Assembly (NCBI GenBank): GCA_019058365.1
Contig: JAHPZE010000037.1
Span: 1 to 35,597, forward strand
Source: Promethearchaeota archaeon
GTDB lineage: Archaea; Asgardarchaeota; Lokiarchaeia; Sigyniarchaeales; SOKP01
Length of the DNA stretch: 35,597 nt
Reading direction: 5' to 3'
The notes under the pieces were generated by a model that did not search any database, had not been told where the DNA came from, and saw only the letters and a program-made list of their open reading frames with translations. The position numbers and the translations under genes were made by a program. Of this stretch, positions 17,451 to 34,406 are shown piece after piece. Position 1 is the first letter of the stretch. The number at the start of each line of letters is the position of its first letter.

Positions 17451-17464
17451 TCGTGAAATAACAG
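17451..17464 (+). repeat. B-type site TCGTGAAA-TAACAG
   Basis: One mismatch to the TCGTGAAATAACCG consensus; lies upstream of the MFS gene. Confidence 0.65.
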
Positions 17465-17579
17465 AATCTTAAGATGTTAGATAAAATATATTTTTTTTAT
17501 TTACTTTAATTCGTCTAAAGTTTTGAATTTCCCAAAGATTTAATTATAACTAGAGATCCATATTAAATTTGATAAAATA

Positions 17580-18977
17580 ATGCCAACTGAAAAATTAACT
17601 TTAAAATCGAAATTAGCATACGGGGGTTTTGGAGCGGGTATTAGCTTACCATCTCAAATTGCTTTTTCAGCGATAACTTTCTTTTATAACACGATATTAG
17701 GGCTAAACGCTGAATTAATTGGTATCGCTTGGTTAATCTTTTCAGTTTGGAATGCGATCAATGATCCTTTATTTGGTTTCATAGAAGATCACACTAAATC
17801 AGAAAAATATGGCAGGAGAATCCCATATATTCGATTTGGTGCTCCGATTTATGGAATAGTGTTCATTTTATGTTGGTTTCCATTTGTAGGGACAAATAAT
17901 CAAATAGGCCTTTTCTTCAATTTAATTATCGTTCTATTTGTCTTTGATACTATGTTTACAATATTAGGGCTCATAAATTTTACCCTTCCAGCAGAAATGA
18001 CAATAACAGCAAAAGAAAGAGGCAATTTATTAGTATATAGTAATATATTAACTTCTATCTCACTTTTAATTTCTTTCATATTGCCCATTTTCTTGTTAAC
18101 TGGATATGAATCACTTGATGAGATTACAAGTTTTCTCATCACGATGATTTTTGTGGGCATTATCTCCGCTATAATAATATTCATAAGCAGTTTTTACTTA
18201 AAAGAGAATAAATATACCCAAATGGAAGATACGCTTCCAATCATCAATGGTATAAAAGAAACTTTTAAAAACAGACCATTTCTAATTTTTGAAGTATCCA
18301 ACTTTTCTTTTACTATTGCTCTAACAATCCTTACTACTGCCATTTTTTATTACGCACAGTACGTTTTAACCGCAACTGGTATTATCGCTACAATTCCATT
18401 AATAGTAGTCTTCATAATGATCTTTGCGTTCTTGGTGGTTTTTAATAAACTAATCGGGAAATATGGTGTAAAGAAAACTTTTATCTTGTCATTAATGTGG
18501 ACAGGATTGAGCTTTATTCTAACGTTTTTCATTGGATGGACGTTGAATCTTGCCATAATTGGATTTATTCTAATAGGGATCGGAATTTCCGGATATATGC
18601 TTACAAACCAAGTTGTCGTAGCCGATATTGTTGATTACGACGAGGTTAAAACAGGAAAGCGAAGAGAAACAACCTATTCCGGAATAAATGCATTGATTAC
18701 AAAACCAGCAATTTCCCTCGCAAATTGGCTGTTCTTGTTAATAATATCATCTTTTGGATTCGATTCAGAGCAACAGACTCAAGAATTCTCTGCTCAATTG
18801 GGAATTATGATGGGATTCGCATTCATTCCCTCCATCTTTTTGATCTTAGGCACAATTGTAATGTTTTTTTACCATTTGGATGGTCCACATTGGCTTTCTC
18901 AAAAAGCAGAACTAATTAAAATTCATGAGAAAAAAGAGCTCGAATATCTAAAATATTTAAAATCAAAAAGAACTTGA
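17580..18977 (+). CDS. MFS transporter, glycoside-pentoside-hexuronide (MelB-like) family
   Basis: WNAINDPLFG..D.T....GRRIPY; ADIVDYDE.KTG.RRE..YSG; about 12 TM segments. Confidence 0.92.
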   Translation: MPTEKLTLKSKLAYGGFGAGISLPSQIAFSAITFFYNTILGLNAELIGIAWLIFSVWNAINDPLFGFIEDHTKSEKYGRRIPYIRFGAPIYGIVFILCWFPFVGTNNQIGLFFNLIIVLFVFDTMFTILGLINFTLPAEMTITAKERGNLLVYSNILTSISLLISFILPIFLLTGYESLDEITSFLITMIFVGIISAIIIFISSFYLKENKYTQMEDTLPIINGIKETFKNRPFLIFEVSNFSFTIALTILTTAIFYYAQYVLTATGIIATIPLIVVFIMIFAFLVVFNKLIGKYGVKKTFILSLMWTGLSFILTFFIGWTLNLAIIGFILIGIGISGYMLTNQVVVADIVDYDEVKTGKRRETTYSGINALITKPAISLANWLFLLIISSFGFDSEQQTQEFSAQLGIMMGFAFIPSIFLILGTIVMFFYHLDGPHWLSQKAELIKIHEKKELEYLKYLKSKRT

Positions 18978-19001
18978 ACTGAATATCAGAACGCTAGTAT
19001 A

Positions 19002-19115
19002 TCTTGAAACGGTTTATATTCTTTAAATATTCATATCAATTATATGATTCGACTCTTCATTTAATTCTGGTATTGTTTAAAAAATGTATAAGGTTTATAC
19101 CATTCTTGAAACCAA
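19002..19115 (+). repeat. A-type site (TCTTGAAA-CGGTTT) with a family III spacer
   Basis: Shares gaaacggtt.atattctttaaatattcatatca and later blocks with 27584. Confidence 0.7.
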
Positions 19116-19147
19116 GGATGGAAAGGTAAATTCAGAGTCTGATTTCA

Positions 19148-19354
19148 ATGAAAATTTACTCAAGATATTTCAAAAAAAATCGAACCCAAAAAATACTTGG
19201 TGGAATACAAAGTCAGATAAGTAATGAAGCAATTTTAGAAGCTTTCTCAACAGATTGGCTTGACATTGAAAATCTTATATTAAGACTAAATATCAATGAC
19301 AACAATAATATAAAATATTTGAATTTAAAACTAAAAGAGTTAGAAAGAAAATAG
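19148..19354 (+). pseudogene. Small wHTH-like protein homologous to the C-terminus of the first ORF, probably cut by a premature TAG
   Basis: KYLNLKLKELERK versus KYLELKLKELERK; after the TAG the frame continues ILIIKKENGIKYYHF. Confidence 0.55.
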
Positions 19355-19428
19355 ATTTTAATTATTAAAAAGGAAAATGGAATTAAGTATTACCATTTCT
19401 TGAAGTATTTATTAATTCTTGTTGATCT

Positions 19429-19716
19429 TTACATGATCTTTTTAAAATCTTCTAAAGATAAATTAGACGGGATTCCCAATTGAGACATTTTAGAAATAAA
19501 TTCATGAAGAGATATTTTTGCTATTTCAGCTGCCTTCTCTATTGAAATTTCCTTTAATACATATTTTTTAATAGCAAAATTAAAACGTTCTTTTTGAAGT
19601 CCTTCGATTAAGATTTTTCTTATTAATGAGGAGCGATCAAGATTCTCATTTTCAGCAAGTTCTTCAAATTCTTTTATCAAATCCTCGTCTAATCTTAAAT
19701 TCATTTGTTTTGTCAT
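19429..19716 (-). CDS. RHH + UPF0175 family antitoxin
   Basis: MNLRLD...DRSSLIR; ISIEKAAEIAKISLHEF. Confidence 0.85.
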   Translation of the reverse strand: MTKQMNLRLDEDLIKEFEELAENENLDRSSLIRKILIEGLQKERFNFAIKKYVLKEISIEKAAEIAKISLHEFISKMSQLGIPSNLSLEDFKKIM

Positions 19717-19736
19717 TTATATTACCTCCTTCTAAA

Positions 19737-20177
19737 TTATTTATTCATAATTTCTTCAGCTCTATTTTTAAAAAATAATACAATATCAGGTTTTAATGAT
19801 TTTATGTGCGCTAATTCGTTAAAAGATATTTGAAATTCTTTATGGCTAATAATATTTTTTTCTAATAATTCTAATAGTATTAATTCTGACGTTTTAGGCT
19901 TTAAACCACAATTCAAAGCATAATTGATAGCTTGATAATCATCTGTTACAGGAATCCCTTTGTTTTTTACACAAATCATAATAGTTTCATTTTCACCTTT
20001 CCCTAGAGTCCTAGAAGAGATAACATTATTCAACTTTATTTTTCTTTCTTCAATCATTTTATTATCTATAGTATGTTTTAGTATTTTAGCATCTGAAAAT
20101 CTGTCAATATCTGCAATTAACTCATTTTTGACTGTAGGACTTACAATAATCGATCCTAATTTCTTTTTTTTCCATTT
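19737..20177 (-). pseudogene. 5'-truncated DUF3368-type PIN toxin
   Basis: The frame extends upstream (IIVSPTVKNEL...) to the stop of the SRPBCC gene and lacks the first PIN strand and Asp; it retains LGKGE and TDD. Confidence 0.7.
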
Positions 20178-32828: not shown

Positions 32829-32922
32829 AAATTATCACTCCTATAGAGCTATGGCTACTATAATTCTATAGACTATTTAATATTATCTAATTAATCAATT
32901 ACTTGATTATACTATTAATTAT

Positions 32923-33114
32923 TTAAAGAAAATAAAGGATAAAAAGTAAGAAATTACTGATATTTTCATTAATTTTTCTTTCTTGATAAATTTCTCTATA
33001 AAATTCAACTTTCAAGACTGGAAGGTCCTTATCAAAGGTTAGATCTCTTATAAAATTATTATAATCGTTTATAATAATCTTTCGAGCTATTTCAAGATTC
33101 TTTCGAGAATCCAT
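32923..33114 (-). pseudogene. Probably truncated partner gene of 33137-33376
   Basis: The N-terminus is conserved with 29768-29905; the 3' end runs into intergenic-like sequence repeated at about 34163-34191. Confidence 0.5.
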
Positions 33115-33136
33115 AAATATGCGTCAACGGACAGCT

Positions 33137-33376
33137 TTATAAATTATTTAAGATCTCTTGTAATTTAATATATTCTAATAGTAATTGGCGTAATTCCACC
33201 GCATCTCCTTCCGCATTTTTATAAATCCCTTTACGTGCTTTTTCTAAGAAATCTTTAGAGAAAGACTCATTATAACGAGCTAGAATCTCATCGATATATT
33301 GTTTTAGAATACTTAATTTTGATGTAATTAAATTTTCAGCTAATGCTTTATCCAATTTTACTTTGGGCATAATCAT
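33137..33376 (-). CDS. Small helical putative antitoxin, paralogue of 29926-30159
   Basis: Near-identical protein sequence. Confidence 0.65.
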   Translation of the reverse strand: MIMPKVKLDKALAENLITSKLSILKQYIDEILARYNESFSKDFLEKARKGIYKNAEGDAVELRQLLLEYIKLQEILNNL

Positions 33377-33538
33377 TAGTTAAATTCATAATGATAAATA
33401 TGAGAAATTTTTCTCAAAATACGCGAAATCATGGTGATAACTATTTGTGTTTTATAAAATGATGGAAAAATTTAATGCGCTTTAAGATATATATATTTTA
33501 AATACTTTATAAAATGTGATTTTACACGAGGCTTTCTA

Positions 33539-33991
33539 ATGATAAAATTGAAAATTTTATTGGATACTTCTGTTTATAGTGCTATATTAGATGAGAGAGA
33601 CACTATTCGCCAAAACCAAACACGGGAATTCTGGAAGAACATTGATAACTTTGAGCTTTATTTTTCTAATATAAATTTGGAAGAAATAGAAGCAATAAGA
33701 GATGAAAAGCTAAAAAATAAAATGAAAGAATTTTTGACTAAGGGAAAGAAACTGGAAATAACAGCTGAAGTTGAAAGAATGAAAACTCTCTACATTATTG
33801 AAGAGCTCATTCCAGAAAGATTTGAAAATGATGCTTTATTACTTGCTTTAACCACGGTCCATTCCATTGATATTTTAATAAGTTGGAATTTTAAACATCT
33901 TGTGAAAAGAAAGACTCGTATAGGAGTTAATTTGATAAATTTAAAAGAAGGATACAAATCTATTGAGATCCTTGCTCCCCCAGAATTATAG
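33539..33991 (+). CDS. PIN-domain protein
   Basis: LLDTSV.SA..D.R, EEIE, DAL..A, LISWNFKHLV. Confidence 0.88.
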   Translation: MIKLKILLDTSVYSAILDERDTIRQNQTREFWKNIDNFELYFSNINLEEIEAIRDEKLKNKMKEFLTKGKKLEITAEVERMKTLYIIEELIPERFENDALLLALTTVHSIDILISWNFKHLVKRKTRIGVNLINLKEGYKSIEILAPPEL

Positions 33992-34002
33992 AGGTGAATA
34001 AC

Positions 34003-34170
34003 ATGTTATATGATATTGAGGCACTTTTAGAGAACTTGGATATTTCTGAAAAAGAAAAAAAAGATTTAGTTAAAGAAGTCAGAGAGGAATTTCCACAGGA
34101 CGATATGTTATTTGAATTACACTTATTTAGAGCAATTAATTATTTAAAAAAGTTAAAAGCAGAAAAGTAA
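34003..34170 (+). CDS. 55-aa putative antitoxin downstream of the PIN gene (below the ORF-track size cutoff)
   Basis: MLYDIEALLENLDISEKEKKDLVKEVREEFPQDDMLFELHLFRAINYLKKLKAEK; SD-like GAGGTGA upstream; homologue at 31908-32093. Confidence 0.75.
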   Translation: MLYDIEALLENLDISEKEKKDLVKEVREEFPQDDMLFELHLFRAINYLKKLKAEK

Positions 34171-34255
34171 GAAATTACTGACATATTCATTTCAAACTTA
34201 ATTCCTAAAATATTACACACATATTACTGCATATTCCTCTGGATATTTTAATCCT

Positions 34256-34406
34256 TCGTGAAACGGTTAGAATTTAAAGCTAGCCTTAAAGTGTCTATTT
34301 ATTGAAAATTAAGATCTCAGTTTTAGTTAAAGTGATTTTTAGAACATTAAGAGTTATAGGATAATACTTGTTAGATAAGTTACGAGAGAGATATGTGAAA
34401 TAACTG
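34256..34406 (+). repeat. Complete A-spacer-B element, family I
   Basis: TCGTGAAACGGTTA at 34256 and ATGTGAAATAACTG at 34393 (offset 137); the spacer aligns with 25757. Confidence 0.88.

Follow-up and report, generated by a model that had tools for sequence, protein, structure and literature searches.

The contig JAHPZE010000037.1 of a Promethearchaeota archaeon (Lokiarchaeia; Sigyniarchaeales; GenBank assembly GCA_019058365.1) carries an array of small gene modules set between two kinds of short site, which we call A and B. The window analyzed here is this whole stretch of 35,597 nucleotides, contig C11 of genome G000 (4.74 Mb in 54 contigs, 29.5% G+C); C-numbers denote contigs of G000, L-numbers related stretches or contigs, and G-numbers genomes in our collection. 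We consider it fairly probable that site-specific recombination at a site of the Xer/dif type built a chromosomal array of gene modules here, and that the window covers the outer part of one of its arms.

The A site reads TCGTGAAA-CGGTTA and the B site TCGTGAAA-TAACCG, and all copies in the window lie on the + strand between open reading frames (ORFs). The A sites are at 19002 (two mismatches), 21972, 23704, 24547, 25757 (two mismatches), 26518, 27584, and 34256, and the B sites at 17451, 22111 (decayed, 9/14), 23673, 24684, 25895, 26656, and 34393 (two mismatches). The original prediction, made from the letters of the window, had named these 15 sites, and every one was recovered at its position, on the + strand and intergenic. 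The fixed-length two-site element that it described is also present, with five A sites in the window having a B site 137 to 139 bp downstream. Ten copies of TCGTGAAA are present in the window, where 1.2 would be expected (0 of 100 shuffles). The sites, linkers, and modules along the window are as follows:

17451..17464, + strand: B half-site TCGTGAAA-TAACAG, the outermost of the array, with a weak A-like 15-mer at 17424
17465..19001, + strand: module with an MFS/sugar transporter gene, 17580-18977 (PF13347, 1e-66)
19002..19015, + strand: degenerate A half-site TCTTGAAA-CGGTTT, followed by a type III interior without a B site
19016..21971, unstranded: fused module between two A sites, with UPF0175/RHH, AHSA1/SRPBCC, two glyoxalase/bleomycin-resistance-type, and MNT nucleotidyltransferase genes (Pfam scan)
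21972..22124, + strand: two-site linker from A 21972 to the decayed B 22111, type I interior
22125..23672, - strand: module with an LRR-TPR protein, 22256-23524 (Pfam scan)
23673..23717, + strand: B 23673 and A 23704, 31 bp apart, an empty B-to-A interval
23718..24546, + strand: module with a VapB antitoxin and a VapC PIN toxin (Pfam scan)
24547..24697, + strand: two-site linker A-137-B, type II interior
24698..25756, unstranded: module with DUF2283 and with DUF5615 (PIN-like) plus DUF433, a fusion of two units that are separate in L067
25757..25908, + strand: two-site linker A-138-B, type I interior
25909..26517, - strand: module with a stand-alone archaeal threonyl-tRNA synthetase (ThrRS) editing domain, 26009-26431 (PF08915, 1e-35)
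26518..26669, + strand: two-site linker A-138-B, type IV interior
26670..27583, - strand: module with a DUF3368 (PIN-like) and UPF0175 pair (Pfam scan)
27584..27597, + strand: A half-site, followed by a type III interior without a B site
27598..34255, unstranded: 6.7-kb block of HepT/MNT, HEPN/MNT, PIN, and small unknown genes
34256..34406, + strand: two-site linker A-137-B, type I interior
34407..35597, unstranded: module with a TPR protein, 34464-35045, plus a second HepT copy, 35418-35597, at the contig end

The gene content named before any database search, that is, the MFS transporter, DUF2283/DUF5615/DUF433, the ThrRS editing domain, and DUF3368/UPF0175, was upheld by Pfam scans, and the vapBC pair does lie between two A sites according to its Pfam assignment and the site positions. 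The orientation of the spacer, the last six bases of each site, runs A, B, A, B along the array, and the A...A and B...B exceptions resemble fused modules. Pieces of the block between 27598 and 34255 are found in other orders in relatives, and we read this block as old fused modules. The ThrRS editing domain (26009-26431) travels as a single-gene cassette between two linkers.

A whole-genome scan with degenerate A and B motifs gave matches on two contigs only, C11 (five of each) and C41 (four of each). With up to two mismatches allowed, C11 has 13 sites and C41 has 16, and the other contigs have 0 to 5 scattered matches each. The even spread through the genome that would have spoken against a capture platform is thus not the case, and the sites belong to one locus. 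A close examination of the contig ends points to the same locus. The HepT copy at the end of C11 (35418-35597) is 96% identical to 29156-29335 of the window, and the end of C41 carries, on the opposite strand, the upstream MNT part (C41:81675-81800), which is 97.6% identical to 29697-29822. The two halves are oriented so as to join C11 to C41:81800 on its reverse strand. Since the HepT/MNT unit is duplicated with 96% to 98% identity, the assembly would break at this point, and the matching halves suggest that the two contigs are neighbors with ~0.36 kb between them. Most likely, C11 and C41 abut and form a single array of ~46 kb. The depth of assembled reads in the source run is even (~77-90) across flank and array, which fits a chromosomal array.

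The part of the array on C41 contains a complete palindrome, F, with the sequence TCGTAAAA-TAACCG-TTTCACGA (C41:60120-60141), of which G000 has a single copy. F consists of an arm TTCGTGAAA, a 6-bp spacer TAACCG, and an inverted arm TTTCACGAA; the arms are 8 to 9 bp, and 9 of 11 positions are symmetric if the site is extended to 11-6-11. At this position the sites on C41 change strand, from + (the last at 60120) to - (the first at 60128), and F is formed where a B site and an inverted A site overlap. Because CGGTTA and TAACCG are reverse complements, A and B each make up one half of F: B is the left arm with the spacer, and A is the right arm with the spacer read on the opposite strand. The site type, which the original prediction did not recognize, can thus be identified as two halves of one palindrome in the dif/Xer style. 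Sequence logos of 57 A and 51 B copies show that the arm and the spacer are conserved and that the position of the second arm is not, which suggests that each site has retained an arm for recombinase binding together with the region of strand exchange, its other arm having been lost. All sites point to F. The long arm of the array runs from C11:17451 to the contig end and then from C41:81800 down to 60141, and a short mirror arm lies on the other side of F (C41:54498-60120), so that the window covers only the outer part of one arm of a larger array converging on F.

Xer-type tyrosine recombinases act on sites with symmetric arms around a 6-bp strand-exchange region, the orientation and identity of which decide which sites react with each other. 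In the mechanism that we propose, F would be the insertion point, and the mobile unit would be a circle with one A site, one linker, one B site, and its gene or genes. Recombination of the B site of the circle with F would give the order B-gene-A-137-F, and recombination of its A site with F, on the other strand, would give A-137-B-gene-F. Both reactions would regenerate F, so cassettes would accumulate on both sides with all sites pointing to F; in this way the model explains why A and B sites alternate, why they converge on F, and why there are two forms of junction. If two B sites or two A sites reacted with each other, such circles would be excised. Gene modules, from B to A, alternate with a partner module, from A to B, which is usually the non-coding linker of 137 to 139 bp; in the terms used for dif modules, the two would be module types that are added in pairs (PMC13141974). 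The arms of difSL and difH also end in GAAA beside the central region, as the arms of F do (PMC5357621). The circular intermediate and the identity of the enzyme are what we infer in this scheme.

The two-site pattern was scanned over one genome per prokaryote species and gave 63 stretches, of which ~24 are from Asgard metagenome-assembled genomes (MAGs) with several sites each; the rest are single matches in A+T-rich bacteria, close to the number expected by chance. Of the 54 species of the window's genus (G000 included), 13 have the strict pattern, as does 1 of 81 in the rest of the family. Submitter labels such as 'Hermodarchaeota', 'Hodarchaeota', and 'Patescibacteria' seemed to indicate a wide taxonomic spread. 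The first two turned out to be the window's own genus, and the spread is narrow. L010, labeled Patescibacteria (26% G+C), bears a full array built on these sites, in which the HD-domain cassette of C41 has a homologue, and is probably an Asgard contig binned into a bacterial MAG.

The same F is present in L010, L037, L048, L058, G182, G183, G195, G204, and G223; in five further genomes, the A and B sites cluster on contigs bearing the single TAACCG palindrome. Convergence on F was seen in nine cases, C41 and eight more contigs or genomes of the genus, namely C41, L010, L037, L048, L058, C57 of G182, C42 with C34 of G183, C84 of G195, and C28 of G204. The layout follows one rule: sites to the left of F are on the + strand, and those to its right, in contigs that extend into an array there, are on the - strand; sites are found on both sides of F in L010 and L048 and on the left side only in L037 and L058. 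Both junctions predicted by the circle model were observed: A-137-F in L010, L037, L048, and G204, and A-137-B-gene-F in C41, L058, G182, and G183. Site decay with distance from F was not significant (rho -0.30, p=0.15).

Modules also move between genomes. The Na/Ca-exchanger cassette of C41 (54497-55779) is 88% to 90% identical in L029, L048, and L053, where the identity extends exactly from B to A and the flanks are unrelated; it adjoins F in L048 and is the outermost unit of the left arm in G000. The DUF2283 unit of the window (24682-25003) is found again in L029 and twice in L067, with DUF5615/DUF433 elsewhere in L067. The HD-domain cassette is another of the modules found in different contexts with boundaries at the sites. 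Between C41:80907-81800 and L065 the identity is 97% as far as the final base of the A site, past which the two are unrelated. Overall, 10 of the 53 ends of long matches fall no more than 20 bp from a site; the expectation is 2.0, and none of 2000 randomizations gave more than 7. The idea of a gene capture or shuffling platform is supported by these observations, as the same modules stand beside different neighbors in relatives and homology stops in the sites.

The same breakpoints bear on another explanation, in which no site-specific recombination takes place, the 150-bp element is a repeat like a miniature inverted-repeat transposable element (MITE) or a protein-binding insulator or regulatory unit, and the modules are shuffled by ordinary homologous recombination from one such repeat to another. 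We regard this as quite improbable. The linkers are indeed repeated, belong to sequence families common to several genomes, and have a bending phasing, so that they could bind a regulator; full palindromes with other spacers, described below, lie between genes genome-wide, as operators or boundary elements would. However, the hallmarks of a MITE are missing: there is no terminal inverted repeat with target duplication, the copies are at one locus only, the inverted part is just the 6-bp core, and the direct 8-mer is not positioned as a target duplication. The conserved gene order with only the 150-bp element varying, by which a MITE or a regulatory site had been expected to betray itself, was not seen either, as modules change neighbors between genomes. 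The spacer next to the arm is conserved and the second arm is not, contrary to what an operator would show and characteristic of a region of strand exchange. Linker interiors are swapped independently of the flanking genes, homology stops at the 14-bp sites, and strict convergence on one full site with two predicted junctions would not be expected from homologous recombination.

The linker deserves a separate examination. Among 32 distinct A-to-B units, the spacing is 137 bp in 10, 138 in 8, and 139 in 11, with 133, 134, and 136 once each, so that 29 of 32 linkers lie within 137 to 139 bp; the median identity of their interiors is 41%. The interiors group into several families, and these are shuffled with respect to the genes on either side. 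The A/T-rich dinucleotides show a periodicity of ~10 bp that is stronger than in all 300 sets of 32 intergenic segments from the same genome, although this phasing is suggestive only, as the copies are related. A length held within ~1 bp at 13 helical turns, together with the phasing, points to a spacing or bending requirement with both arms on one face of the helix, and bending or wrapping of the linker probably brings A and B side by side. Two other roles were considered and rejected. Nine single-strand folds, of five elements and on both strands, were no better than shuffles (z -0.23 to +1.18), which does not favor an attC-like hairpin or a structured RNA, and Rfam has no match in the window. 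The longest open stretch in the linkers has a median of 31 codons, with stops in all frames and no conserved ORF, which disfavors a small protein. In a sister-sample run (X2), one low-depth contig is without 149 bp (25782-25930), most of one linker, and the ends of this gap are not at the site cores.

A more specific and rather doubtful possibility is that A-137-B is a composite recombination site of a new kind, the two half-sites of which, 13 turns apart on a phased and bendable linker, are looped into one functional partner of F; the linker might perhaps be wrapped by archaeal histones or another architectural protein. If this were true, looping would play the role that single-strand folding of attC has in integrons, and the housekeeping recombinase XerA would run an integron-like gene capture in the archaeal group closest to eukaryotes. 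The same geometry would permit a different device, an invertible switch. The spacers of A and B are inverted, and a phased linker of 13 turns could align them in a loop, so that a 123-bp flip would make a full palindrome and an arm-less site, opening or closing an insertion point. This is very improbable, as none of the full sites examined shows the flipped state, in which an arm-less TAACCG would lie 137 bp from a full site. The full sites instead occupy the B position with an intact A upstream or follow a gene, and a loop of 123 bp would be very tight for a tyrosine recombinase without strong bending of the DNA.

The recombinase that had been sought in the window without success is likewise absent from the surroundings of related arrays, none of the 22 array loci from relatives having a recombinase gene. 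G000 is 100% complete by marker genes, and two tyrosine recombinases are its only PF00589 matches, both encoded away from the array; G000 has no serine recombinase. The first is XerA (C7:156988-157908), which scores 238.7 bits with NF040815 (cut-off 220), has Pyrococcus abyssi XerA as its best match in the PDB, and reaches 97.9 bits with the integron-integrase model TIGR02249 (cut-off 265); there is no integron integrase in G000. The second is an integrase of 429 amino acids (C46:203684-204970), homologues of which are found in 11 of 134 genomes of the family with at most 55% identity and are often broken.

Palindromes with the same arm sequence are present in 112 of the 134 family genomes, which suggests that a conserved host protein recognizes the arms, with XerA as the obvious candidate. 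The enzyme of the array is most likely host XerA acting in trans, being the sole widely conserved tyrosine recombinase found. In G000, about ten more perfect or near-perfect palindromes TCGTGAAA-N6-TTTCACGA have each their own spacer and are all intergenic, several of them between convergent genes (C39:54308, C52:17178, C9:119906, C16:147576, C21:130894, C30:20289, C34:25479, C34:245222, C40:38019, and C46:183445). The palindrome with the spacer GATGCG has exactly one copy, always complete, in 26 to 28 of the 54 genus genomes, and no split form of it was found in the 54. G187, a relative assembled as one contig, carries six palindromes with these arms and has neither A nor B sites. One of the palindromes with other spacers may be the chromosomal dif. 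An RNA hairpin was rejected as their function, the variants in the arms not being compensated. Sites split in the manner of attL/attR with other spacers were also rejected in G000, where 42 pairs were counted against 21 expected and the excess comes entirely from C41.

The 429-residue integrase has been set aside as the enzyme of the array, being sporadic, never linked to it, and without consistent flanking arms, and is kept as a rival only. The platform would then be the same, served in trans by this element-borne integrase or by an unrecognized family, and the host palindromes would merely resemble its site; we find this possible but rather unlikely. The patchy arrays (13 of 54 species) match a patchy integrase (10 of 54), the two are found together in five genomes against 2.4 expected, and in archaeal MAGs the integron form reported most often is the attC cluster that has no integrase (CALIN) and is served in trans (PMC9668308). 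Against these points, 8 of the 13 array-bearing species show no homologue of the integrase, the homologues are at most 55% identical and several are broken, none is on an array contig, six integrase loci show no consistent flanking arms, and the association of integrase and array is weak. In G000, the integrase gene and a 935-residue ORF lie between weak arm-like sequences TTCATGAAA-TATATA ... TATATA-TTTCACTAA (C46:200371-205190); the integrase loci of five relatives have nothing like this TATATA bracketing, and the pattern may be due to chance.

Several observations weigh against an array built at a dif-type site by XerA. The integrase just discussed and arrays are found together slightly more often than by chance (5 of 10 against 8 of 44; one-sided Fisher p=0.05, uncorrected for relatedness or genome size). 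The strict two-site element is confined to 13 of 54 genus species, so XerA alone does not determine its presence, and the binding of XerA to the arms is inferred. G000 has the ten or so further full palindromes with other spacers, and neither GC skew in G187, which tracks the coding strand, nor its single orc1/cdc6 gene singles out one palindrome as the chromosomal dif. One-armed sites are poor substrates for a complete two-strand exchange. The linker is a blind spot of the insertion model, which leaves its fixed length unexplained, and some A-to-B intervals hold genes (C41:55765-56658 and 57523-60120), outside the simple model. The block at 27598-34255 has no recognizable site even at four mismatches. 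Finally, the Logan contigs of public runs gave no trustworthy excision or circle junction; the read joints listed there have sides of 20 to 40 nt at repeats and are not to be trusted.

The closest known parallel is found in the plasmid dif (pdif) modules of Acinetobacter Rep_3/OrfX plasmids, which are thought to be moved by XerC/XerD (PMC13141974, PMC6449649). In both systems, short dif-like sites with a 6-bp spacer separate discrete modules of accessory genes, neighboring sites are oppositely oriented, and two module types alternate and are added in pairs. Both are rich in toxin-antitoxin modules, contain fused modules, and have no linked dedicated recombinase, host Xer being the presumed catalyst and matching spacers being needed for the reactions. 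A full site built like dif, alternating inverse sites, and the same module in varied contexts were all found here. The array differs in lying on an archaeal chromosome at one locus, in its one-armed sites with the conserved arm always on the same strand, in having one module type that is nearly always a non-coding linker of fixed length (137-139 bp), and in converging as a whole on a single complete site; there is a single XerA, no pair of XerC and XerD, and no Rep_3/OrfX backbone. The lokiarchaeal array is therefore a functional analogue of dif modules and not a member of them.

The array resembles integrons as well as pdif modules, and yet is not an attC integron. Integrons and CALINs, including those of Asgard MAGs (PMC9668308), share with it co-oriented, promoter-poor small cassettes rich in toxin-antitoxin and defense genes, one privileged insertion point like attI, and an element of ~60 to 150 bp per cassette. 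In contrast, the array has no IntI and no hairpin-folding element, shows GTTA...TAAC instead of AAC...GTT, grows on both sides of the acceptor, and has genes in mixed orientation. Integrative mobile elements exploiting Xer recombination (IMEX), such as the CTX, VGJ, and TLC phages and the gonococcal island (PMC5357621), have no integrase of their own and are inserted at a dif-type site by host Xer; one of their junctions retains a complete site, at the other there is a hybrid, one arm of which is degenerate, and successive insertions build tandem arrays beside the site. Junctions of this type fit the regeneration of F beside one-armed sites, but the units here are cassettes of one or a few genes rather than phages or islands, and dozens of them lie on both sides. 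The TAACCG spacer differs from those of the other conserved palindromes, and the acceptor may therefore not be the chromosomal dif. Sites of a tyrosine recombinase that conserve only one arm and the spacer are known from the shufflon of IncI plasmids, in which Rci acts on sfx sites. In the shufflon, the recombinase is linked and only segments of a single gene are inverted, whereas the lokiarchaeal array collects unrelated genes, which pass from genome to genome.

In bacteria, much is known about gene-capture platforms such as integrons and dif modules. The papers that we found on dif modules deal with Acinetobacter only, and we found none on Xer-type module arrays in archaea; the archaeal reports found describe only attC integrons and CALINs of the bacterial type, enriched in Asgard MAGs (PMC9668308). 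The array would be an apparently native archaeal solution in Lokiarchaeia, a chromosomal store of defense, toxin-antitoxin, and transport genes that is exchanged between species and built from dif-like half-sites, with no linked integrase needed. If XerA runs it, a housekeeping enzyme of chromosome resolution would also drive the flux of the Asgard accessory genome. The unusual grammar of orthogonal spacers, one-armed sites, and a fixed, phased linker offers a compact and testable model of how directionality and insertion might be controlled with a single recombinase, and the system provides a practical handle for finding accessory gene pools in Asgard metagenomes.

Viral contigs were also compared. 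The two-site pattern gave four unrelated matches among them, and no element of Asgard archaea was found. Full-site matches in viral contigs are palindromes of bacterial phages (14-6-14, near terminase genes); 13 of the 19 viral contigs matching the palindrome (L115-L133, IMG/VR) carry a longer conserved site, AATGTCGTGAAA-N6-TTTCACGACATT. L120 and L121 carry genes of bacterial phage type, so the viral site has no relation to the Asgard system. In L120, the one contig checked for its position, the longer site lies just upstream of a small-terminase-like gene.

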